In this document: piece by piece, positions 41,635-52,126 of the stretch
Position numbering within the stretch: the first letter of the stretch is position 1
How the letters are laid out: each line of letters begins with the position of its first letter
DNA from: a bacterium
Lineage (GTDB): Bacteria > UBA10199 > 2-02-FULL-44-16 > JAAZCA01
Assembly (NCBI GenBank): GCA_963674695.2
Contig: CAXXGI010000003.1
Coordinates: 768,001-832,000 of the forward strand
Direction: 5' to 3'
Length of the DNA stretch: 64,000 nt
Program-made: the position numbers and the translations under genes
The notes under the pieces: model-generated
Databases searched by the model: none
What the model saw: the letters and a program-made list of their open reading frames with translations, nothing else
What the model was told of the DNA's origin: nothing

Positions 41635-42666
41635 TCAGATTGTCGACTCGCCCGCGGCCAGCTGTCCGCAGGCGGCCAGTATCTCGGCACCGCGACTGAC
41701 ACGCACGTTGGTCTGAATGCCGCGATCGAAGAGGACCTGTGAGAAGCGCTCGATCGCCGCAGGCAGCGGAGCGTTGAGGTCGGACCCCGGGAAGGGATTG
41801 AAGGGAATGAGGTTCACCTTGGCCGGCACGCCATGGAGCAGCGCAACGAGTCGATTCGCATCGGCGACCGTGTCGTTGACACCGCCAATGAGGACATACT
41901 CGAATGTCACGCGATGCCGGGAATGTTCGGCGTAATCGCGGCAGAAGGCCATGATTTGAGCGATCGGATACTTCCGATTGATCGGCATGATCCGATCGCG
42001 CACCGCATCGGTCGTCGCATTCAGCGAAATAGCAATCTTAATCTCGTAGCGCAGGGGAAATGCCTCGAGCTCCGGGATGAGCCCCGCGGTCGAAAGCGTG
42101 ATGCGGCGTTTGGCGAGATTGAAGGCGCGATCGTCAATAAAGACTTCGATGGCATTGGTCACGGCCTCAGCGTTGGCCAACGGCTCCCCCATTCCCATGA
42201 GGACCACGTTGGTCACCCGCGCCGAGGAGCTGCGCATGATCGCGAGGAGCTGACCGAGAATCTCCCCTTGAGTCAGGTTGCGTTTAAACCCCATACGCGC
42301 CGTTCGACAGAAGGCACAATCCATCGCACAGCCCACCTGCGTGGAGAGGCATACGGTGATGCGATCCCCGTCGGCGGGGATGAGGACGCACTCGATGGCC
42401 TGGCCATCGCGCGTTCGACAGAGATACTTTTGCGTTCCATCAGCGGCCGAGAGCGTCTCCTCGAGCGCGATCGCATCGATCACGAAACGCTCCTCAAGCA
42501 GAGCGCGCGCATCCTTCGAGAGATTGGTCATCTCCGCAAAACTCGTCACGCGTCGCTCATAGAGCCACGCGATGATCTGACCCGCCGCAAAACGCTTGAG
42601 GCCAAGGTCTGCAACGACCAGGTCCGGCAATTCATTCAAGGGAATGTCAGTGATGGCTGGTTTCAT
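41635..42666 (-). CDS. rlmN: 23S rRNA m2A2503 methyltransferase (radical SAM)
   Basis: C.STQVGCAMDCAFC, MGMGEPL, NLIPFNP, G..I.AACGQL. Confidence 0.95.
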   Translation of the reverse strand: MKPAITDIPLNELPDLVVADLGLKRFAAGQIIAWLYERRVTSFAEMTNLSKDARALLEERFVIDAIALEETLSAADGTQKYLCRTRDGQAIECVLIPADGDRITVCLSTQVGCAMDCAFCRTARMGFKRNLTQGEILGQLLAIMRSSSARVTNVVLMGMGEPLANAEAVTNAIEVFIDDRAFNLAKRRITLSTAGLIPELEAFPLRYEIKIAISLNATTDAVRDRIMPINRKYPIAQIMAFCRDYAEHSRHRVTFEYVLIGGVNDTVADANRLVALLHGVPAKVNLIPFNPFPGSDLNAPLPAAIERFSQVLFDRGIQTNVRVSRGAEILAACGQLAAGESTI

Positions 42667-42704
42667 GGATGCTCGATTGAGAGTGATCGTTATAAAAAGC
42701 CGAC

Positions 42705-42756
42705 CTGGATCCCCGATTCAATCACTCCCGCCAAAGGCGGGCAAGCGGGGATGACA
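42705..42756. repeat. Palindromic repeat variant
   Basis: CTGGATCCCCG...CCCGCCAAAGGCGGG...CGGGGATGACA. Confidence 0.7.
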
Positions 42757-42804
42757 ACACAAAAAGTACCTTGAACATTTCCCCAGGAGACGCCATGGCC
42801 CCTG

Positions 42805-42878
42805 CGCCGCGAGGGGAAATCAGATGCGTCTGGAACAAGCTTCACCTGTGAAGATGTATCTGATTTCCCCGGGAGGCG
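42805..42878. repeat. Hairpin element with CGCCGCGAGGGG...CCCCGGGAGGC ends (copy 1)
   Basis: Stem GGGGAAATCAGATGCGTCT / AGATGTATCTGATTTCCCC. Confidence 0.7.
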
Positions 42879-42908
42879 CCCTGGCATTTGCGCCTCAGTG
42901 ACCCGGCT

Positions 42909-43601
42909 CTATTCCTCGGCAAAGATCGGCAACGTTGGGAGTTCGGTCACGCGTTTGACGCAGAGGCAATCGACTTGCGCGTGCGTCCCATCGGGGTCGA
43001 CGAGCACCGGCGTCATGCCGACTTTTCGCGCGCCGACGACATCGATCCGATAGAGGTCGCCCACATAGACGGAGCGCTCGGCTTGCACGCCCATCTGCTC
43101 CATCGCATGCCGAAAGATCCGCTCGTCCGGTTTGTCGAAGCCGACCTCGCCGGAATCGATGATGACGTCGAAGCGGTCGGTGATGCCGGCGTGTTCGATG
43201 AGCTGCTTGATCTGCCCCTCGGCATTGGAGATGACTCCGAGACGATAGTTTCGCCCACGCAACCAGTCGAGCATCTCGATGGTCCCTTCATCGCGACGCG
43301 ACCAGAAGAGGTGCGGCTCGGGATGCGTGCGCACGACTTCCGCAATGCGCAGGAAATACTCCTCCGCGATGCCAACGAACCGCATCCACCTACGATAGGC
43401 CTCGATCCAGAGCTCATGATGGTCGAGCTTCCCCACCGTGCCATCGCGCACGAGCGAACGCTTGGTCATATCATGGGCGCTGGCCAACCGCTCGACCGGG
43501 ATCGTCAGATCGAAGCGCTCGCGCAGAAGCCTCTGAAAAAAATCATAGTTGAAGAAGAAGAGCGTGTTGCCGATGTCGAAAAAGACCGCGTCGTACTGCA
43601 T
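42909..43601 (-). CDS. HAD-superfamily hydrolase
   Basis: FFDIGNTL, ISN, KPD..IF, VGD....DV.GA; GGAGG RBS. Confidence 0.92.
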   Translation of the reverse strand: MQYDAVFFDIGNTLFFFNYDFFQRLLRERFDLTIPVERLASAHDMTKRSLVRDGTVGKLDHHELWIEAYRRWMRFVGIAEEYFLRIAEVVRTHPEPHLFWSRRDEGTIEMLDWLRGRNYRLGVISNAEGQIKQLIEHAGITDRFDVIIDSGEVGFDKPDERIFRHAMEQMGVQAERSVYVGDLYRIDVVGARKVGMTPVLVDPDGTHAQVDCLCVKRVTELPTLPIFAEE

Positions 43602-43610
43602 GGAACCTCC

Positions 43611-43641
43611 GTAACTCGTAACTCGTAACTCGTAACTCGTA
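43611..43641. repeat. (GTAACTC)4 heptamer tract abutting the HAD RBS
   Basis: gtaactc x4 plus gta. Confidence 0.9.
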
Positions 43642-43657
43642 GAACCCATGATGGTGT

Positions 43658-43729
43658 CGCCGCGAGGGGAAAACCGAAACCATTTTTACAGGTTCATCGG
43701 AAAAATGGTTTCGGTTTTCCCCGGGAGGC
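43658..43729. repeat. Hairpin element with CGCCGCGAGGGG...CCCCGGGAGGC ends (copy 2)
   Basis: Perfect 22-bp stem GGGGAAAACCGAAACCATTTTT / AAAAATGGTTTCGGTTTTCCCC. Confidence 0.75.
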
Positions 43730-43749
43730 AACCCGATATTCGCGCCGAT

Positions 43750-45096
43750 TCACGAGCAATAATCGGCCACCTCATCGACGAGTTCGTCGAGCAGGCCGAA
43801 GGTGTGGGCGACGTCGAGAATGGTGTACCTCCCTCGGATCGCCATTCCAAGGTGCAACGCGTCGCAAAATTCCTGACGAGAAATGCCCAGCTCGGAAAAA
43901 CGCGTCTTGGCCCCCGCCTGCATCAGGGCATCGCGCACCGCTGCCGCCGGCATGAGCATGGGCGAGAGCGTCGCGCGGATCGCGTCCCAGGAAGAGACGA
44001 GCCGATCACACCCGGCCTCGTAGCTCACCCGATCGGGACGCTTCTTTGCAAATTGCGCCAGGATCTCATCCGACTTTTCTCCGAAGAGAGCACGCACATC
44101 CTGACGAAGTTTCTCACCCCGCTCCCAGGCCGTGGCGAGCTGCTGCCGATCCACATCGGCAGCAGCCGTTTGCATCATCCGCTCATAGATAAAGGCCGAG
44201 GCGATGGAACCGATGCCCACCTGCGCCCCGTGAAAGTCGTGTGCGGTCCCGGCATGCACCCAGCGCATGTCGAGGAAGTGCGAGACGAGGTGTTCCGCAC
44301 CCGAGGCCGGCGACGAACTACCCGCGATGATCATCGACACACCCGAGAAGACGAGCGCTTCTGTCATCGCCCCGATCGCTCGTCGGTCGCGTCGTGCAAG
44401 CCCCGCCGAATCTCGAATGTAGAGCGGCTCCAGGTCGCGAATGAGGGCAAACGGCCGCGGGCAGAAGTGCTCGCCGGTGTGAATCGAGGAGAGCTTCCAA
44501 TCGGAATTGCAAAAGGGTTTGGAGAGCAGATCGCCGAGCCCTGCGCGGATCATCTCCATCGGCGCCGCACACAGGATGTCGGTGTCGGCGACGACCGCGA
44601 CAGCTGGTTGGATGGGGATGGAGGTCTTGAGCCCCTTGCTGATGATGGCGACGATAGAAGAGGCATAGCCGTTCATCGAGGGCGCGGTGGCGACGGCAAT
44701 CTGTGGCAGACCGTGGCGCGTCGCGGCGAACTTGCCCAAGTCGGTGATGCTGCCCGAGCCACAGGAGATGAGCACAGCATCGTCGGCGCGCACGCGCGCG
44801 GCGACCGCTTCGGCCGTCTCATCGTCGACGCGCGGACATCCCGACACGATCTCGACGCGAACGGCATGCCCCGCATCGCGAAGGATCGCTTCGAGGCGCT
44901 GGCCGGCGATACCGAAGGTGATCTCGTCGGCGAGCAACAAGATCGGCCCGCCCAGATGCAGTTGTTTCAGGAGATCGGGCGTGCGTGCGAGCGCACCCGG
45001 TTCGATGATCGCTTCGCGCACGGGAACGGTGTGTTCTCGACCACATTCGCACGTCCACGTCGAACCCAAAAGCGCATGTCTCTCATCTGTGGCCAT
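43750..45096 (-). CDS. sn-glycerol-1-phosphate dehydrogenase (AraM/EgsA family)
   Basis: N-terminal CECGREH, GSG.I.D.GK, TAPSM.GYAS, AGLGD..SK, PASGAEH..SH, HG.QVG. Confidence 0.88.
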   Translation of the reverse strand: MATDERHALLGSTWTCECGREHTVPVREAIIEPGALARTPDLLKQLHLGGPILLLADEITFGIAGQRLEAILRDAGHAVRVEIVSGCPRVDDETAEAVAARVRADDAVLISCGSGSITDLGKFAATRHGLPQIAVATAPSMNGYASSIVAIISKGLKTSIPIQPAVAVVADTDILCAAPMEMIRAGLGDLLSKPFCNSDWKLSSIHTGEHFCPRPFALIRDLEPLYIRDSAGLARRDRRAIGAMTEALVFSGVSMIIAGSSSPASGAEHLVSHFLDMRWVHAGTAHDFHGAQVGIGSIASAFIYERMMQTAAADVDRQQLATAWERGEKLRQDVRALFGEKSDEILAQFAKKRPDRVSYEAGCDRLVSSWDAIRATLSPMLMPAAAVRDALMQAGAKTRFSELGISRQEFCDALHLGMAIRGRYTILDVAHTFGLLDELVDEVADYCS

Positions 45097-45107
45097 CACC
45101 CTTCCCT

Positions 45108-48092
45108 TCAGATCTTTCCGGAACGAAGCGCTGCGAGCAGGCGCTCCAGGTGCACGTGATATTTTTGGGGCAACTTGACGAAGAGCTTGTCGGTCGAGTC
45201 CGCCTCGACATGTCGACGCGCAGCCGCGATGTAGTCATCGACCTTGAGCCCCAAACGTCGAATCGATGCGCTGTCGGCGCCCTCGCCGGAGAGCCGTGCA
45301 ACGGCCGCCTCACGATTCCAGTCCACCTGCGACAGAGAACGATAGACCATGCCGCGCACGTGGTGGGTGAGCGTCTTGGAACCGACCGCATACCCCAGGC
45401 GCCCCTCGGCGCGGGTGAGGTTGAAACGCGTTTCGCGCAAAACCGCAAGCTCCTTGAGCTCCTCCTGATCCTCGTCCCCCTCGTTCGAAGCCAAGCCCTG
45501 CCCGCCCACCGCCGCTCGAATCTCCGCGGGCAGATGGCGTCCCTCGATGCGATCGTTCCCCTCGAAGAGGGCGGCATCGAAGGCCTGATCGATGCTGCCG
45601 GAAAGTTCGCTCACGTTGTAGCGATCGAACCCGTATCGACTCAACGTACCGATCACCTCCGGCGCCATGGCGACCGTTCGATGATCCTGCCGATTGCGTC
45701 GCGCCAGGAAAAAGGCGGCCAGCCCCTCGATATCCTCCGGGCGCTGCGCGAGCGCCGGAACCCGCACCATGCCGCGCGACTGAATGCGACGCAGAAAATC
45801 CGCGCGCATGCGACCGGCATGCACGAGTTCCTCGAGCGGTTCGTTGGTGGCGAAGAGAAAGCGTGCGCTGGTTGTGCGCGGCGCCCCCCGCCCCGCCGCG
45901 GGATTGAACGGACGTCCCTCCAGCGGCAACAGGAGCAGCTGCTGCGCCTGCAGCGGGATGAGTTCGACCTCATCGAAGAAGAGCGTGCCCTGCGTATACT
46001 CCTCGAGAATGCCGCGCTGCCCCTTGGCATCGATCCCGTGCAGACCGCTGCCGGCGCCATAGCCGAAGAGTTTTCCCAAGACCACGAGCGGATCGCCGGA
46101 GGCAAACTCGGCACAGTTGAACTCGCCAAAGGGTTTGTCCTGGCGGGAACTCAGCGCATGGATGCTGCGCGCGATCCCGGTCTTTCCCGAACCGGTGGGA
46201 CCCAAAACGACCACCGGCTCGCGATCGCTGGCGCGAATAGCGGCATCGCGCAGACAACGGAGCCAGGCCGGCGAAGAACCGATGGCGATCGTGTGGCGCA
46301 GATGCCCAAATGCGGGATGATCCGCTTCCATGCCGGTCAGGCGCCCGGCCAGCTCTTCCGTCACGGCAGGGTCATACGATTCTCGGCTCGGCAACGGCAC
46401 CCGGTCCTTGAGCTCGACCAGGCGCTCCTTCTGCGCCATCTCGCGCCCGAGGCGTTCGATCGATTCGGCCACCGGCCGAATCTCACCGTCGGCGCCTTCG
46501 ACCGTGACCGCATCCCCTTCGCGCAGACTCTCGACGGCATGCGAGAGCACATCGAGCGGACGCGCAAAGCGACGGCGCACGAACCAGGCGGCAAAGCCGG
46601 CGATGGCCAGCGCACAGACCAGGGCGATCATCTGCATCAGCACCGCACGGCCAACGGCGTTTGAAACCGGCGCAAAGGAGATGCCCACCTCGAGCGTGGC
46701 CCGTCGACGCCCGCCGACGACGATCGGATCGAGAACGGTGACGACATCGGGCATGAAGCGTTCATAGGCATGGGCCCGCACCGCATCGAGCACCGTTGCC
46801 CCTACCTCGCCCGCGCGATCGGAGGCGACGATGCGCCCATCCTGCACGACGCGCGCCCAGGCGACCGCATCGTCCTGCACCGCCTGCACAATGATCGGAT
46901 CGACCCCCTCGGAAGAGGCGCCCGCCATGGCGGCGACCAGGCGCAGGTTGAGGTTTTCCAGATCGCCCACCTTGCCCGCGGCATAGGTGTCGATCGAGCC
47001 GGAAAGCAGCGCCAGCCCATAGGCCGTCATCACCACGATCAGGAGCAGCACCCCCGCGCCCACGGCCACGCCAACAGCACCGGCCAGCCGGCGACGGATG
47101 AACAACCCCACGGCCACGAGCAGGATGACGACCACCAGCACCGATCCCACCATCCAGACCCGAGCGCGACGCTTGGCCAGATCGACGCGTTCGTCGAAGA
47201 TGGCCGGAATGCGCCGGTAGGGGATGGCCGTGTGCAGGATCGGCAGCGTTTTGGATGCGTCGGCATAACGCCGAATGGCATCGAAGGCCGATTCGGGCTG
47301 TACCACAAAACGTCCCACCTCGGTGATGCGCCGCAGATCGGCGGGCACCTCCGCTTCATAGGAGAGAAAGGCCTGCCGCAGGCGCGCCTTCATCTCGGGG
47401 GAGAGCGAGGTGCGCACCGTGATCGGGCCCATCGGAATGGGATCGGACTGCGCCACGACCCGGAGGGATGTGCGCTGCGCCTCATCGAGCAGAGCGACGA
47501 AGAAGTCGCCAACCGCCGCGGCATCGACCGCCCCCTCCATCACCGCGTCCAAGGAGCGATCGTGGGAACCGGTCAGGACGATGCGACGGAAGAAGGCACC
47601 GGGATCGGTCACTCCGGCCTGCGCGATCATCGTCCGGGGCAGGAGGTATCCCGAGGTGGAGAGCGCATCGGTCAGGGCCAGCGAGCGCGACTGCAGGTCT
47701 TCGATGCCCTGGGCATCGTCGTCGGCGCGAACGACGATGACGCTCCGATAGGTCGGACTGCCCCGGCGTTCCTCGCCGACGAGGATCTCGGCCCCGCCCG
47801 CGGCGATGGCCTCCACGTGCGTGAGTGCGCCGCCCTCGAAGAGATCGATCTCTCCGCTTCGAAGGGCACCGATGAGGTCCTGATAATTTTCGCGCAGGAC
47901 CATCTCGACCGGGCGACCGATCGCACGCGAGAGATAGTCCACCAGCGGAATCCACTGGCGAACCACCGCTGCCGGACTGCGGCCGCCGACAAACCCCATG
48001 CGCACGGCATCGTCGGCACAGATGCCTGCTCGCGCACTGAAAAATGCGCTTGTGATGAGAGCCCCTACGAGAATTTTCTTCAAGCATCGCAT
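45108..48092 (-). CDS. Membrane-anchored one-component regulator: PhnD-type binding domain, TM helices, HAMP and sigma54-type AAA+ domain
   Basis: Signal peptide; YRSVIVV, D..STSGYL.P and GSHD (PhnD); 3 TM helices; HAMP; GPTGSGKT, LFFDEV, ATN, R.EDI; C-terminal HTH-like region. Confidence 0.85.
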   Translation of the reverse strand: MRCLKKILVGALITSAFFSARAGICADDAVRMGFVGGRSPAAVVRQWIPLVDYLSRAIGRPVEMVLRENYQDLIGALRSGEIDLFEGGALTHVEAIAAGGAEILVGEERRGSPTYRSVIVVRADDDAQGIEDLQSRSLALTDALSTSGYLLPRTMIAQAGVTDPGAFFRRIVLTGSHDRSLDAVMEGAVDAAAVGDFFVALLDEAQRTSLRVVAQSDPIPMGPITVRTSLSPEMKARLRQAFLSYEAEVPADLRRITEVGRFVVQPESAFDAIRRYADASKTLPILHTAIPYRRIPAIFDERVDLAKRRARVWMVGSVLVVVILLVAVGLFIRRRLAGAVGVAVGAGVLLLIVVMTAYGLALLSGSIDTYAAGKVGDLENLNLRLVAAMAGASSEGVDPIIVQAVQDDAVAWARVVQDGRIVASDRAGEVGATVLDAVRAHAYERFMPDVVTVLDPIVVGGRRRATLEVGISFAPVSNAVGRAVLMQMIALVCALAIAGFAAWFVRRRFARPLDVLSHAVESLREGDAVTVEGADGEIRPVAESIERLGREMAQKERLVELKDRVPLPSRESYDPAVTEELAGRLTGMEADHPAFGHLRHTIAIGSSPAWLRCLRDAAIRASDREPVVVLGPTGSGKTGIARSIHALSSRQDKPFGEFNCAEFASGDPLVVLGKLFGYGAGSGLHGIDAKGQRGILEEYTQGTLFFDEVELIPLQAQQLLLLPLEGRPFNPAAGRGAPRTTSARFLFATNEPLEELVHAGRMRADFLRRIQSRGMVRVPALAQRPEDIEGLAAFFLARRNRQDHRTVAMAPEVIGTLSRYGFDRYNVSELSGSIDQAFDAALFEGNDRIEGRHLPAEIRAAVGGQGLASNEGDEDQEELKELAVLRETRFNLTRAEGRLGYAVGSKTLTHHVRGMVYRSLSQVDWNREAAVARLSGEGADSASIRRLGLKVDDYIAAARRHVEADSTDKLFVKLPQKYHVHLERLLAALRSGKI

Positions 48093-48253
48093 GAGAGCGC
48101 CTTCGTAACCGTCACCAGGGGCATTGTCAACGACAGCGCGTCGCAGAACGCAATCCCACAGCCGATGCCACGGTTTTGCCATCCCTTCCCACACCGCCCC
48201 TTCGAAGGAATTTGGAAATGCCATTATAATTCAAGCGATTAGAAACGACTCCC

Positions 48254-48270
48254 TTGGCCCGCCCCTTGCA
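48254..48270 (+). promoter_or_regulatory. Sigma54 (-24/-12) promoter for the MFS gene
   Basis: TTGGCCCGCCCCTTGCA = GG-N10-GC, 47 nt upstream of ATG 48318. Confidence 0.7.
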
Positions 48271-48317
48271 ATAGTGCCGGGCAACAAAACCCTTAACCGC
48301 AGACGACAGGAGCCTTC

Positions 48318-49637
48318 ATGTCCCCCACTCGATCCTATCGCTATTGGCGCTGGCGCATGTTCCTCGGCATGTATGCGGGGTATGTGATCTATTACTTCAC
48401 GCGCAAGAATCTCGCGCCGGTCCTGCCGCTCTTCAGCAAAGAGCTCGGCATCTCCCTCATGGATCTGGGGATCCTGGGCAGCATCTTCTATGTGACCTAC
48501 GGCGTGGGAAAATTCATCAGCGGCTTGCTCGCCGATCGCTCCTCGATTCGCCTCTTCATGCCGGCGGGGCTCGCACTCGCCTCGATCACAAACATCCTCT
48601 TCTCCACGACCGAAACGCTCTGGCTGCTGGCCCTCCTCTGGGGACTCAACGGCGCCTTTCAGTCGATGGGGTTTCCGCCCGTGGCCAAGGGGCTGACCTC
48701 CTGGTTCAGCGCCAGCGAACGCGCGACCAAGTGGACGCTCTGGTCGAGCTCGCACACCGCCGGGACCTTTCTCATCGGAATCCTCGCGGCCGCCCTGATG
48801 CAGCACTATGGCTGGCGCAGCGCCTTTCTCGTCCCGGGCGTGCTGGGGCTCATCACCGCCGTACTGCTCTTCTTCACGCTGCGCGATCGGCCGCAATCGA
48901 TCGGCATGCCCTCCATTGAAACCTATCGCAACGACCCGGCCCCGGTGCAGGTTCCTGCGCACCTGACCCATTGGCAGATCCTGCGACGCTACGTCTTCGG
49001 GAACAGCTCGATCTGGTTGCTCTGTCTGGCCTACATCTTCGTCTATCTCATCCGTTTCGGCACGCTGGATTGGTCGACCAAGTTTCTCTACGACGTCCGC
49101 GGTATCGAACCCGTGCGCGTCGCCCTCATCTGGTCGCTCATGCCGCTGTTTGGCATGCCCGGCGGCATCGTCGCGGGCTGGATCGCCGACCGTTTCTTCC
49201 ATGGCCGCTGCGTCCCGATCACGATCATCTATCTGGTCCTGTTGGCGGCGAGCATCCTCGGCTTCTATCGTTTCGCCGGGCCCCAGAACATCGCCCTCAC
49301 CTGCGTCTTTCTCGCCGCCATCGGTTTCTTCGTCGACGGCCCGCAGAACCTCGTGGGGGGCGTGCAGGTCTCGCGCATCACCGCCCCGCAGGCCGTCTCG
49401 GCCGCCTGCGGACTGACGGGACTCTTCGGCTATATCGGCGCCATGCTCTCGGGCGTGGGCCTGGCCGCCATCACCGATGCCGCCGGATGGGCCGCGATGT
49501 TCGGGACCTGTATCATCAGCTGCGGCATCGCCGCCCTCCTGGTCAGCCTCACCTGGCGAGCGGAGCGCACACAGCAGCGAGAGCAATCGGCAGAACCAAC
49601 CCGCCTCGAACCCGCAATTGCGGAGAGCGGTATCTGA
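48318..49637 (+). CDS. MFS organophosphate:Pi antiporter family (UhpC/GlpT-like)
   Basis: YRYWR...GY...YFTRK, GKF.SG.LADR, NG.FQ.MG.PP, W.SSH..G, G..G.FGY.G. Confidence 0.9.
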   Translation: MSPTRSYRYWRWRMFLGMYAGYVIYYFTRKNLAPVLPLFSKELGISLMDLGILGSIFYVTYGVGKFISGLLADRSSIRLFMPAGLALASITNILFSTTETLWLLALLWGLNGAFQSMGFPPVAKGLTSWFSASERATKWTLWSSSHTAGTFLIGILAAALMQHYGWRSAFLVPGVLGLITAVLLFFTLRDRPQSIGMPSIETYRNDPAPVQVPAHLTHWQILRRYVFGNSSIWLLCLAYIFVYLIRFGTLDWSTKFLYDVRGIEPVRVALIWSLMPLFGMPGGIVAGWIADRFFHGRCVPITIIYLVLLAASILGFYRFAGPQNIALTCVFLAAIGFFVDGPQNLVGGVQVSRITAPQAVSAACGLTGLFGYIGAMLSGVGLAAITDAAGWAAMFGTCIISCGIAALLVSLTWRAERTQQREQSAEPTRLEPAIAESGI

Positions 49638-49665
49638 CAGCCACTATCAGAAAGGAACCCTCATC

Positions 49666-50406
49666 ATGGAAATAACCCCCTATCGCATTCCGTATGACAT
49701 CGACTATTTTCTCGATGGCTTCTGCAATGGGAGCGATCTGTTCAGCGACGTCTACGGCACGTCGGTGACGATGCTGCTCTCGGATCGCCGCTCCGCCTAT
49801 TTTTGTCCTGAAAAGCTCAAGGGCAGCTGGCGCATCTATGTCGATGCCAGCGGCACCGAACACCTGATCATACCGCCTGGAAAGCGCGACTCCCGGCCAA
49901 ATCACATCCTCGCATGGCCGCGTGCGCAGGACGTGCTCGCCTGTGGCGCCACAGCGCTGCCGCAGATATCGGTCGAACTCCGGAGTCGCAGCGCATATAA
50001 ACGACACCCAACGACGTCCTCGCCGGCCGTCCCACCCTTCGTCATCGAGCAAAAGCGGGAGAAGGGATGGTCCTTCCGCATCGACGCCCAAGGCGTTCAA
50101 TTCACTTCCGGATCGACGCGCTATATGTTTTCCACCGAGGACATCGCGCTGCAGGAACGTATCTGGGAGGATTGCACCTATGACTATGAACTTGGCCACG
50201 AATTCTGCACGACGCACCTCGGCGTCTTCACCCCGTACGCATCCGACCTGAGTCCCTTCATCGCCATCCTCGAAGAGGCCCGAGCGCAGGGCGATCCGGC
50301 CCAGGCCTCGAGCTTCGACTTCGCCATCGCGACGATCATGCAGTCGATGGAGAAACTCGCGGAGATCGACACCTTCGAACGGGCGTGTGGGGAGATCAAA
50401 GAATAG
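49666..50406 (+). CDS. Hypothetical protein (246 aa)
   Basis: AAAGGA RBS before ATG 49666; no family recognised. Confidence 0.6.
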   Translation: MEITPYRIPYDIDYFLDGFCNGSDLFSDVYGTSVTMLLSDRRSAYFCPEKLKGSWRIYVDASGTEHLIIPPGKRDSRPNHILAWPRAQDVLACGATALPQISVELRSRSAYKRHPTTSSPAVPPFVIEQKREKGWSFRIDAQGVQFTSGSTRYMFSTEDIALQERIWEDCTYDYELGHEFCTTHLGVFTPYASDLSPFIAILEEARAQGDPAQASSFDFAIATIMQSMEKLAEIDTFERACGEIKE

Positions 50407-50409
50407 GGC

Positions 50410-50465
50410 TGGATCCCCGATTACCCCCTCGGGGATGACAGACTCTCGTGCCCTCGGGGATGACA
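50410..50465. repeat. Palindromic repeat variant with duplicated end
   Basis: CTGGATCCCCGA...TCGGGGATGACA followed by a second CCCTCGGGGATGACA. Confidence 0.7.
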
Positions 50466-50467
50466 GC

Positions 50468-52126
50468 TCAGGACAGTTCGCGGGCGATCTCGACGATGCG
50501 CACGAGTTTGGCGTTGATCGTGCGAAACTGGCTCATGAGATCGAGGTGAATGGAGCTGGTATCGAAGCTCTCGCGCATCTTGTCGTGCAAGCGCATCAGG
50601 TGCGACTGCCGAAGCTCCAGTTCCACCTCATTGAGGTGATGGTCATGACGGATGACCTTGAGCGCAATATCCTCGTGAGGATGCGTGAGCATCGAGATGG
50701 TCAAATCGAAGTTCTGCAAGACCAGTTCGTGCAGATGTTTGATCTCCACCCAGCCTTCGTCGGAAAAACGCGTCCATTTCTTCCGCTTCTTGTGCGCCAG
50801 GAGAATGACTTCCTTGGAGATGACGTCGCCGATATCCTCGAGCTCTCCGGCGATCATGAGGAGCGAGACCTGCTGGATGGACTGCGATTCATTGAGCATC
50901 TTCTGTGAAATCTTCGCGAGATAGAAACGCACCGCTTTTTCGAGCAGATCGATCTTGTCGTCGGCGCTGGCCGTCTTCTCGGCGAGTCGGTCGATCTCCT
51001 CCTCATCCTTAAAGAGATCGAGCACGTGGGCAAACATCTCGTGCGCAATCTGCGCGATGCGCATCACCTCGCGCCGCACCTGGGCGAAGGCGAGCGCCGG
51101 CGTTGGCAGCGCCGCATCCTCCAGATACTTCGGCCGAAACGCCTCTTTCCGATGCGCCTGTTGCGGAACGATCTTTTTCACCATCCAGACAACGACGTTG
51201 GTGAACGGGAGGAAGAGCACCACCAGAAAGAGGTTGAACAGCAGATGGGAGAGCGCGATCTCGCCGCTGGTGCTCAGGTGCATCCACGTCATATCCGTCG
51301 AGAGATGCGCGTTGAACTGCATGATGAACTGCGCGATCTCACCGAGGAAGGGAAAGACGATCATCGCGCCGACGATCTTCATGAGCACGTGCGCCACCGC
51401 CACGCGCCGCCCCTCGACCCCCACCCCGAAACAGGCCAGCCCCGCGGTGATGCACGTACCGATGTTCGCGCCAAGGACGATGGGGAGTGCGGCCTCGAAC
51501 GTGATGGTACCCGAGAAGGAGAGCGCGATGGCCAGACCGATGGTGGCGGCCGAGGCCTGCACGATGCCAGTGAAAACCGTGGCGAAGATGAGATTGGCCA
51601 GGGGATTTTTCGCGAGGAATGTAAACGCCTGCATCGCCGCAGGGCTCTCGCGCAGGGGCACCGCCGCGGCCGACATCAGGTACATGCCGAAGAAGATCAT
51701 GCCAAAGCCGAGCACGATCGAACCGATGTAGCGCATCTTCTGGCTGCGCCCCAGGTGCGAGAGCAGCATTCCACCCGCGACGAGATAGAGCGCATAGCTC
51801 GTGATCTTTTGGAAGGAGAGCAGGACCACCACCAGCGTCGTGCCCACGCCGGCGCCCAGGATGACGCCGATGGCCTGCACGAGCGTGAGCAGCTGCGTCT
51901 CGACAAAACTCACGAGTAAGACGGTCGTCGCGCTCGAACTCTGCAGCATGACGGTGATGGACGCGCCGAGCCCCAGCGCGAAGAGGCGATTCTGCGTGAG
52001 CCTTCCCATCAAGGCGCGCAACCGCTCGCCGGCGGCCAGCTGCAGCCCCTGGCGCGCTGAGGTCAGTCCGAAGAAGAAAAAAGCCAATCCGCCGATCATC
52101 GATGCCCAGCCAAAACTCACATCCAT
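50468..52126 (-). CDS. Na+/phosphate cotransporter with PhoU-like C-terminus
   Basis: QSSSATT and QASAAT repeats, GA.VGTT/GANIGT, helical ELEDIGD region. Confidence 0.92.
   Translation of the reverse strand: MDVSFGWASMIGGLAFFFFGLTSARQGLQLAAGERLRALMGRLTQNRLFALGLGASITVMLQSSSATTVLLVSFVETQLLTLVQAIGVILGAGVGTTLVVVLLSFQKITSYALYLVAGGMLLSHLGRSQKMRYIGSIVLGFGMIFFGMYLMSAAAVPLRESPAAMQAFTFLAKNPLANLIFATVFTGIVQASAATIGLAIALSFSGTITFEAALPIVLGANIGTCITAGLACFGVGVEGRRVAVAHVLMKIVGAMIVFPFLGEIAQFIMQFNAHLSTDMTWMHLSTSGEIALSHLLFNLFLVVLFLPFTNVVVWMVKKIVPQQAHRKEAFRPKYLEDAALPTPALAFAQVRREVMRIAQIAHEMFAHVLDLFKDEEEIDRLAEKTASADDKIDLLEKAVRFYLAKISQKMLNESQSIQQVSLLMIAGELEDIGDVISKEVILLAHKKRKKWTRFSDEGWVEIKHLHELVLQNFDLTISMLTHPHEDIALKVIRHDHHLNEVELELRQSHLMRLHDKMRESFDTSSIHLDLMSQFRTINAKLVRIVEIARELS

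Follow-up and report, generated by a model that had tools for sequence, protein, structure and literature searches.

A single minus-strand gene in the 64,000 nt stretch of bacterial DNA analysed here (the window; positions 768,001 to 832,000 of contig CAXXGI010000003.1, assembly GCA_963674695.2, GTDB lineage UBA10199) encodes a 994 aa protein, the sensor, that joins a periplasmic binding domain to a sigma-54-type AAA+ ATPase. We consider it likely that the sensor is a membrane-integral, one-component enhancer-binding protein that would drive the sigma-54 promoter of two genes on the opposite strand, one for an OPA-family antiporter and one for a conserved 246 aa protein. As judged from its sequence, it would be a variant enhancer-binding protein, membrane-integral, one-component and devoid of the GAFTGA motif. 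The evidence comes from the domains of the sensor, from the promoter and direct repeats beside its gene, and from the recurrence of these elements at other loci that encode members of the same family.

Residues are numbered on the 1038 aa open frame (45108–48224, minus strand). Translation probably starts at M45 (ATG at 48090–48092), because a GAAGG lies 5′ of this codon, the N-termini of family members align there and a 994 aa product is on record. Within this one open reading frame (ORF) a signal peptide is followed by a PhnD-type binding domain, three transmembrane (TM) helices, a weak HAMP match and the sigma-54-type AAA+ domain. An earlier reading of the letters alone (the original prediction) had described just this single-polypeptide anatomy, which Pfam and hydropathy analysis confirm with the proviso that HAMP is below threshold; the same domains and hydropathy support its further claim of a one-component, membrane-integral sensor–regulator. 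Pfam and NCBIfam searches of the sensor and the neighbouring genes gave no match to HisKA, HATPase_c or Response_reg. Kyte–Doolittle hydropathy gave four hydrophobic segments, at residues 51–69 (signal-peptide-like), 352–384, 378–412 and 522–551, the last three peaking at 3.08, 2.66 and 2.36, and Arg clusters on the C-terminal side of TM1 and TM3 are consistent with an inside location of those flanks. This pattern fits a topology in which the binding domain is outside, followed by a TM hairpin and a second external stretch, with HAMP and ATPase inside. The second external stretch (∼110 aa) matched no Pfam family. HAMP exceeds the cut-off in a paralogue of the sensor in the same genome (paralogue 2, 31.1 bits) and is among the precomputed domains of 7 of 23 family members; the connector between the HAMP-like linker and the ATPase is helical and varies in length across the family.

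The binding domain passes the thresholds of both families to which it was compared at that level, PF12974 (Phosphonate-bd, residues 77–295, E 1.2e-57; 195.5 bits against a cut-off of 27) and TIGR01098 (169.6 bits against 112.05), while its score against the PhnD equivalog TIGR03431 (172 bits against 261.1) is below the threshold for a true phosphonate ABC binding protein. Its closest solved structures are PtxB (5lv1, 9e-26) and ArrX (6x6b, 2e-24), with AioX also among the best matches. Passages of PMC5908839 describe an oxyanion pocket common to PhnD and AioX, formed by two Tyr residues, a Ser-x-Ser motif and a His. Residues Y114, Y159, S189–T190–S191 and H221 of the sensor, placed by motif and spacing and not by superposition, have the spacing given in those passages for the AioX pocket. 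The STS-G motif and H221 are conserved in the family, and Y159 is retained in 10 of 15 aligned members.

The AAA+ domain also passes its family threshold (PF00158, residues 648–815, 8e-30; score 104.2 bits, cut-off 20.2; AAA_lid_14, PF25601, matched as well), and its solved relatives are ZraR (1ojl, 6.8e-28), NtrC1 and PspF. In an alignment of 15 full-length relatives, found by scanning 1.84 billion representative proteins, the Walker A motif GPTGSGKTG, the Walker B motif FFDE and the arginines are invariant in every member. At the position of GAFTGA, all 15 carry instead a loop of the form SG[IL]xG[IV], and HMMER aligns GA-FTGA of ZraR to GSGLHGI of the sensor with one residue inserted. Six-frame translation of the genome to which the window belongs yielded 10 loops of the GAFTGA type and exactly three of the variant type, and the three variant-loop proteins are the three sensor paralogues. 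Relatives whose N-terminal modules differ (receiver domains, CHASE2) also carry the variant loop; relatives with dCache_1 plus HAMP or with PDZ match the C-terminal half of the sensor, their loops having escaped the loop pattern. We propose that the SG[IL]xG[IV] loop would make the contact with sigma-54 in place of GAFTGA. One predicted active variant, GVATGV, is noted for Desulfovibrio in a passage of PMC4641369.

The genome (3.03 Mb in three contigs) encodes rpoN, the gene for sigma-54. A good −24/−12 promoter before the divergent transporter gene, claimed by the original prediction, was borne out: TGGCCCGCCCCTTGCA lies 47 nt 5′ of the transporter ATG and differs from the consensus at one position. 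Across the genome, 18 sites match perfectly and 56 with one mismatch, 74 in all or about one per 41 kb, whereas three Markov copies of contig C3 contained no perfect site and 3–11 one-mismatch sites each. The perfect sites examined are each followed by a ribosome-binding site and an ATG, and the genes concerned are unrelated. These counts, together with the placement of the perfect sites, indicate that the consensus is meaningful in this genome; the looser pattern TGGC-N8-TGC (12 matches, 11.8 expected) was uninformative.

All three paralogues in the genome adjoin a sigma-54 site with no or one mismatch: the window promoter at 48255, sites at 423342 (−) and 423546 (+) of contig C2 that flank the MFS–sensor operon of paralogue 1, and a divergent site at C2 715334 (+) for paralogue 2. 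Such sites are also present at loci L017, L018 (two sites), L019, L034, L035, L037, L039, L040 and L116. In total, each of the 12 distinct loci at which the PhnD-type member is full-length and its flank visible carries an adjoining site with no or one mismatch, within ∼250 nt of the gene start or end or, for paralogue 1, directly upstream of an operon of an MFS gene and the sensor gene. Duplicate contigs (L033, L036, L038 and L047, which repeat L017, L034 and L018) were left out of this count; at L112 (genome G058), L114 (genome G085) and L032 the 5′ end of the sensor gene is beyond the contig edge and no site is visible. Given one site per 41 kb, the chance of a site in a given 500 nt stretch is ∼1.2%.

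A second element accompanies these promoters. In the window, four direct repeats on the promoter strand lie 63–100 nt upstream of the −24 element, the usual distance for an enhancer. In the family the repeat core is C[AC]CAC, often TTCACAC, on the promoter strand with a spacing of ∼11 bp; repeats start at about −95, −83 and −74 from the start of the −24 element at L018a, L018b, L019, L037 and L039, and similar arrays are found at five more promoters (paralogue 2, L017, L034, L035 and L040). At least three matches between −170 and −50 were present at 10 of 13 sensor-adjacent promoters (L116 excluded from the count) and at 1 of 70 other sigma-54 sites of the window's own genome; of the remaining three sensor-adjacent promoters, one shows two matches, and both promoters of paralogue 1 show no match at all. 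Because L018a and L019 are orthologous, the set of 13 is not wholly independent. A generic repeat search of the intergenic region reported short pairs only and did not pick up the degenerate direct repeats. The likely reader of the repeats is the C-terminal 140 aa of the sensor, which are predicted to form seven helices (AF2 pLDDT 87.5). In VIA comparisons this domain reached a best Z of 4.8 and showed a weak likeness to helix-turn-helix (HTH) domains, including the DNA-binding domain of NtrC1 (Z 3.7, rmsd 2.9, 46 residues aligned); HTH_8 matched 1 of 10 family members, weakly (E 0.14).

Several observations weigh against this account of the sensor. The sensor lacks GAFTGA, and the loop in its place has neither an aromatic residue nor a conserved Thr. 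Passages of two surveys (PMC3162934, PMC12316311) treat GAFTGA as obligatory and drop homologues without it, and describe known GAFTGA-less homologues as sigma-70 dependent. The HAMP match, at 18.9 bits, is under the Pfam cut-off of 25 bits, and the C-terminal domain has no significant match to an HTH family, no Pfam family and no Foldseek match. Both promoters of paralogue 1 are without C[AC]CAC repeats and have GACACAG twice instead, 11 nt apart; repeats of another kind are present at the sigma-54 site before a PGI-family gene and an OPA gene in G058; and a strict scan of the genome for at least three spaced C[AC]CAC found six clusters, none at a sensor locus. Finally, the distant relatives at L041/L042 and L043, which match the C-terminal half only, have no sigma-54 site nearby.

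A rival reading is that the sensor, having lost GAFTGA in the manner of TyrR, HupR, DhaR and VpsR, is no sigma-54 activator but works at sigma-70 promoters, represses transcription or is an ATPase with no role in transcription, the nearby −24/−12 sites being served by other, canonical activators. The sequence of the loop favours this, as do the passages of PMC3162934 and PMC12316311 that count absence of GAFTGA as loss of function, and such sites could be served by the 10 canonical activators encoded in the genome. Nevertheless, we regard it as very unlikely: a sigma-54 site is kept beside the gene at all 12 distinct loci, in several lineages; the family's repeat array lies at enhancer distance from these sites and recurs at only 1 of 70 other sigma-54 sites; no ATPase motif is damaged; and a sigma-70 consensus scan of 42500–50700 found no site (terminator-like sites in the same scan were at chance level).

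We therefore return to the sensor as a sigma-54 activator and, from its domains, topology pattern, promoter and repeats and the recurrence of these, propose the following scheme. A phosphoryl or related oxyanion ligand would bind the PhnD/PtxB/AioX-type domain in the periplasm, and the signal would pass through the unit formed by TM2, the external domain and TM3, then through the HAMP-like linker and the helical connector, to the AAA+ ring, which it would free or assemble. The C-terminal helical domains would hold the four same-strand repeats, and the ATPase ring would open the sigma-54 complex at the promoter ∼80 nt away. Transcription would then cover the antiporter gene and the 246 aa gene behind it, and the compound most likely to act as inducer is an organophosphate, the cargo of the antiporter itself. 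More generally, we lean towards the view that the sensor belongs to an AAA+ clade that activates sigma-54 polymerase without GAFTGA, by way of the SG[IL]xG[IV] loop, with many members embedded in the membrane, fused to PhnD-type sensor modules or to CHASE2 or dCache plus HAMP (Pfam names), and with same-strand direct-repeat enhancers at the PhnD-type loci. If activators held in the membrane bind such enhancers, the target promoter would be pulled to the membrane. In this genome, on this view, the sensor cassette would have captured an organophosphate antiporter.

Some further features of the sigma-54 sites may be recorded. The regulon of the genome is large (∼74 sites) with an unusually tight consensus, and 13 activators are encoded in the 3 Mb. 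The genome holds six copies of the 16-mer TGGCACGCTCCTTGCT and four of TGGCATGCCTCTTGCT; sites with identical 16-mers (for example C1 26843, 314877, 825712 and 941461; C2 216153 and 487097) precede different genes, several with signal peptides or lipoprotein boxes. A repeat element was considered as the source of the six identical copies and rejected, since their flanks are unrelated (23–32% identity), and the sites are therefore best taken as independent promoters. The gene for paralogue 1 (C2 418946–423561; locus L015 7935–12562), whose product is 51% identical to the window sensor, follows an MFS_1 gene of the same orientation. A one-mismatch site stands before the MFS gene and a perfect site, divergent from it, before a radical-SAM gene, with the two GACACAG copies between these sites; paralogue 1 may therefore be autoregulated. 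At L035, a metagenome locus of low G+C content, the sensor-adjacent site is followed by a gene (1373–2068) for a small soluble histidine kinase (HisKA plus HATPase_c), through which the family would there feed a two-component cascade. Genes of the LPG_synthase_TM type (lysyl-phosphatidylglycerol synthase-like) lie near sensors of the paralogue 2 type, at L016 17769–18785 in the window's own genome and at L019 6155–7231 in genome G001.

Coordinates of all features of the window treated here are collected below.

Table 1. Features of the sensor locus in window coordinates, with residue numbers on the 1038 aa open frame.
Feature	Coordinates	Strand	Basis or detail
HAD-IA phosphatase-family gene	42909–43649	−	PF00702, PF13419; best NCBIfam matches sub-threshold
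G1P-dehydrogenase-family (AraM/EgsA-like) gene, Fe-ADH_2, 449 aa	43750–45099	−	PF13685, 1.9e-29
Sensor–regulator gene	45108–48092	−	994 aa from M45; open frame up to 48224; Pfam/NCBIfam domains
C-terminal all-helical domain, aa 899–1038, presumed DNA-binding	45111–45530	−	alignment; conserved tail LFxxLPQKYH
Sigma-54-type AAA+ domain with lid, aa 648–905	45510–46283	−	PF00158, PF25601
L1 loop at GAFTGA position, FGYGAGSGLHGID	46029–46067	−	family consensus FGYGxxSG[IL]xG[IV]
HAMP-like linker, aa 548–593	46446–46583	−	PF00672, E 0.002, 18.9 bits
TM1–TM2 hairpin (aa 352–412), second external stretch (aa 413–521) and TM3 (aa 522–551)	46572–47171	−	hydropathy
Periplasmic PhnD/PtxB/AioX-type binding domain, aa 77–324	47253–47996	−	PF12974, TIGR01098, solved relatives
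Presumed enhancer (upstream activating sequence), four direct repeats [CG]CCA[CT]	48155–48192	+	starts 48155, 48167, 48178, 48188; spacing 12, 11, 10
Sigma-54 (−24/−12) promoter, TGGCCCGCCCCTTGCA	48255–48270	+	one mismatch to TGGCACGNNNNTTGCW
OPA-family (GlpT/UhpC-like) MFS antiporter gene, 439 aa	48318–49637	+	MFS_1; GlpT 1pw4
Conserved 246 aa cytoplasmic protein gene, four invariant Cys	49666–50406	+	homologues beside family sensors

The transporter resembles several members of its family without reaching the threshold of any: UhpC scored 340.2 bits (cut-off 564), the PgtP subfamily TIGR00881 334.7 (407.75), GlpT 275.8 (632.55) and UhpT 188 (497) in NCBIfam. Among solved carriers it aligns with GlpT (1pw4) over residues 6–418 at 2.2e-66 and with SLC37A4 at 1.6e-47. 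It conserves basic residues of the GlpT alignment, the Arg of YYxxRKN, the Lys of GxxKFIxG and the Arg of VYLxRxG, which we take to have functional roles in GlpT. The gene is single copy in its genome, and orthologues with 66–68% identity are found in three genomes, G058, G026 and G004. In G058 the orthologue (68% identical) adjoins a family sensor, to which it is convergent, and follows a PGI-family gene and a sigma-54 site; in G026 it follows the same PGI-family gene, with no sensor; in G004 the contig is too short to give a context. In G085 a sensor gene and a HAD fragment flank a more distant OPA-like gene (39% identity). The predicted link of the sensor to the divergent transporter thus found support in the sigma-54 site, the family-typical repeats and the sensor–OPA adjacency in G058 and G085.

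The PGI-family genes directly upstream of the orthologues (L112 4120–5466 in G058; L113 4940–6370 in G026) encode proteins with a signal-peptide- or lipoprotein-like N-terminus, 62% identical to one another and 36% identical to housekeeping PGI. A secreted PGI-like protein is odd, and this one may be a periplasmic binder or converter of sugar phosphates. As the PGI-family gene is operonic with close orthologues of the transporter, a hexose phosphate is indicated, and the linkage suggests a hexose phosphate at least as much as a glycerol phosphate. On such genomic context, hexose-6-phosphate is somewhat favoured over glycerol phosphate as the inducer. Our tentative first choice for the cargo and inducer would therefore be hexose-6-phosphate, which we would put only a little short of even; something else, inorganic oxyanions included, is a lesser possibility, a glycerol phosphate is rather unlikely, and sn-glycerol-1-phosphate (G1P) in particular is improbable.

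Inorganic oxyanions deserve separate consideration, since PtxB, which binds phosphite, and ArrX, an arsenate sensor, are the solved structures nearest to the binding domain. A PF12974 domain is also said to serve in a thiosulfate sensor system. The sensor might accordingly detect phosphite, phosphate, arsenate, thiosulfate or a similar anion, with the OPA-type carrier exchanging that anion or answering phosphate status. Beside the transporter and 246 aa genes, and convergent to the latter, is a gene (50468–52126, minus strand) for a Na/Pi cotransporter–PhoU fusion, a second phosphate-related carrier, which would suit such a role, and passages of PMC5908839 and PMC8050422 place PF12974 domains in oxyanion sensor systems such as AioX. 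We nevertheless find this doubtful, because the residues that the transporter has in common with GlpT, and the PGI and dehydrogenase partners of its relatives, point to organic phosphates, and because the STS triad of the sensor has the PhnD form, as opposed to the S-N-S given for AioX in a passage of PMC5908839.

An organophosphate, as favoured above, was also at the heart of the original prediction, which saw in this locus a single module for sensing, importing and oxidizing G1P or a related phosphoester. In such a module for G1P, the sensor would bind it, the transporter would import it, the AraM-like enzyme would oxidize it to dihydroxyacetone phosphate and the HAD protein would assist. 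The AraM/EgsA-family gene directly after the sensor and the HAD gene after that were both confirmed as ORFs. The dehydrogenase gene begins 8 nt after the sensor stop codon, and it and the HAD gene probably share the sensor transcript, downstream of it. The protein is nearest to solved G1P dehydrogenases (9h4x 1.1e-38, 4rgq 1.4e-30; glycerol dehydrogenases 5e-10 or weaker), with which its GSGS, AGxGD and PASGxEHxxSH stretches align. The genome lacks PcrB/GGGPS, so that a G1P dehydrogenase here would not feed ether-lipid synthesis. Moreover, OPA paralogues (33–40% identity) lie directly upstream of the dehydrogenase–HAD genes in G003, G016 and G018, and the HAD fragment of G085 stands beside an OPA-like gene next to a sensor. 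To this extent the proposal held up. No result singles out G1P as ligand or cargo, however, and as a whole the module appears improbable: the dehydrogenase scores 199.5 bits against the cut-off of 413 for the G1P dehydrogenase equivalog (NF002022); the transporter's best family score is for UhpC, above GlpT; and its 66–68% identical orthologues in G058 and G026 have the secreted PGI-family gene, and not a dehydrogenase gene, in front of them.

The distribution of the genes leads in the same direction. The dehydrogenase gene is present in 15 of 93 genomes of the phylum, and the order dehydrogenase–HAD–RlmN is syntenic in five of eight loci of relatives, none with a sensor. None of the other family loci examined has a G1P dehydrogenase-like gene, and HAD is found there only as the fragment in G085. 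The tie of the sensor to the dehydrogenase and HAD genes is thus unique to this genome and did not survive comparison; of the neighbourhood that conservation was to reveal, the sensor–OPA adjacency recurs in G058 and G085 and the dehydrogenase–HAD partnership does not. Our reading of gene order is that two units may have met here, an older OPA–dehydrogenase–HAD(–RlmN) block and a mobile cassette of sensor, promoter and 246 aa gene, and that the cassette promoter would now drive an OPA gene of the PGI-linked type.

The second target, the 246 aa gene, starts 28 nt after the OPA stop codon, within an open frame of 49477–50406, and has an AAAGGA ribosome-binding site. Homologues stand beside family sensors at L018 (two copies, one on each side), L019, L037, L040 and L047 (blastp 4e-14 to 6e-29), with further homologues at L116 and next to paralogue 2, and they lie directly behind sensor-adjacent sigma-54 promoters. 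The gene is found in 5 of the 93 genomes of the phylum, four of them with sensors; in G012 the likeness is confined to the N-terminal part, with no sensor or sigma-54 site nearby. It is the commonest target of the sensor family, most of the other outputs being proteins that match no family. In a single-sequence search the protein retrieved only itself, Pfam gave no match, Atlas none at 0.8 or above, and Foldseek against the PDB none at E ≤0.001. Likeness to a polo box was considered and set aside, as the best VIA comparison (Z 5.1, 72 residues) is within noise. The protein may be the real effector or a feedback partner of the sensor family.

The family is rare: within the order, 6 of 22 genomes encode a member, and within the phylum 8 of 93 do so. 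A word-limited search of 5.8 billion clusters found 23 proteins combining PF12974 with PF00158, all metagenome-derived, and the only name attached to them is ‘phosphate/phosphite/phosphonate ABC transporter binding protein’. A related-locus search of genome contigs returned one distant locus, which matches the binding domain only. A search of an open-access library, survey supplementary tables being outside its scope, turned up neither a described membrane-bound sigma-54 activator nor a protein of this architecture.

If the family is active as proposed, the consequences would reach beyond this locus. GAFTGA serves as the defining test for sigma-54 activators in passages of the surveys PMC3162934 and PMC12316311, a test that the family fails while keeping sigma-54 promoters and an enhancer of its own. 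The rules of contact between activator and sigma-54 would then be wider than thought, and sigma-54 regulons would have been undercounted so far. A periplasmic binding domain would run a hexameric motor directly across the membrane, a three-component pathway having been collapsed into one protein, and the result would be a sigma-54 switch for sensing phosphorylated compounds that is compact, gated by its ligand and tightly off. The family also flags a conserved 246 aa protein with no fold match as a regular output.

In its output the locus recalls Uhp. The UhpABC–UhpT system of E. coli senses external glucose-6-phosphate and induces an OPA antiporter; here too an OPA-family antiporter forms the output, with its own external substrate as the presumed inducer, and the carrier scores best against UhpC. 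The locus has no UhpC-type receptor, kinase or response regulator, however, and sensing by a binding-protein domain, with sigma-54 in place of a sigma-70 activator, would apply instead. ToxR, CadC and TcpP are likewise membrane-anchored activators of one chain, with an external sensor, a cytoplasmic DNA-binding output and direct-repeat sites. They act through N-terminal winged-helix domains of the OmpR type on sigma-70 polymerase, without ATP, whereas the C-terminal AAA+ motor of the sensor would need to form a ring at the membrane. Soluble enhancer-binding proteins such as ZraR, NtrC1, PspF and DctD have the same AAA+ domain with lid and enhancers ∼60–100 nt upstream of the −24 element; the sensor differs from them in its three TM helices and periplasmic sensor domain, in its SG[IL]xG[IV] loop with a one-residue insertion, in same-strand direct repeats about one helical turn apart in place of the usual palindrome, and in a C-terminus not recognized as HTH_8. 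TyrR, HupR, DhaR, VpsR and YplP resemble the sensor as PF00158-type proteins without an intact GAFTGA, but passages of PMC3162934 describe them as sigma-70 dependent, while the sensor family has a sigma-54 promoter at its side at 12 of 12 loci.

The AioXSR system for three-component sensing of arsenite, in which a PF12974 binding protein feeds a sigma-54 activator, offers a precedent (passages of PMC5908839). AioXSR and ArxXSR, as described there, lead from a PhnD-like periplasmic domain to a sigma-54 AAA+ activator and have a −24/−12 promoter adjoining the regulatory genes, as the sensor does. In AioXSR, however, these steps are divided among a separate PF12974 protein, a histidine kinase and a response regulator, whereas the sensor has them all in one chain with no kinase or receiver domain; it is also membrane-anchored and lacks GAFTGA, and its target is a transporter and a 246 aa protein rather than an oxidase. 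By analogy, the closest known system would thus be AioXSR in its logic, collapsed into one chain, and Uhp in its output.

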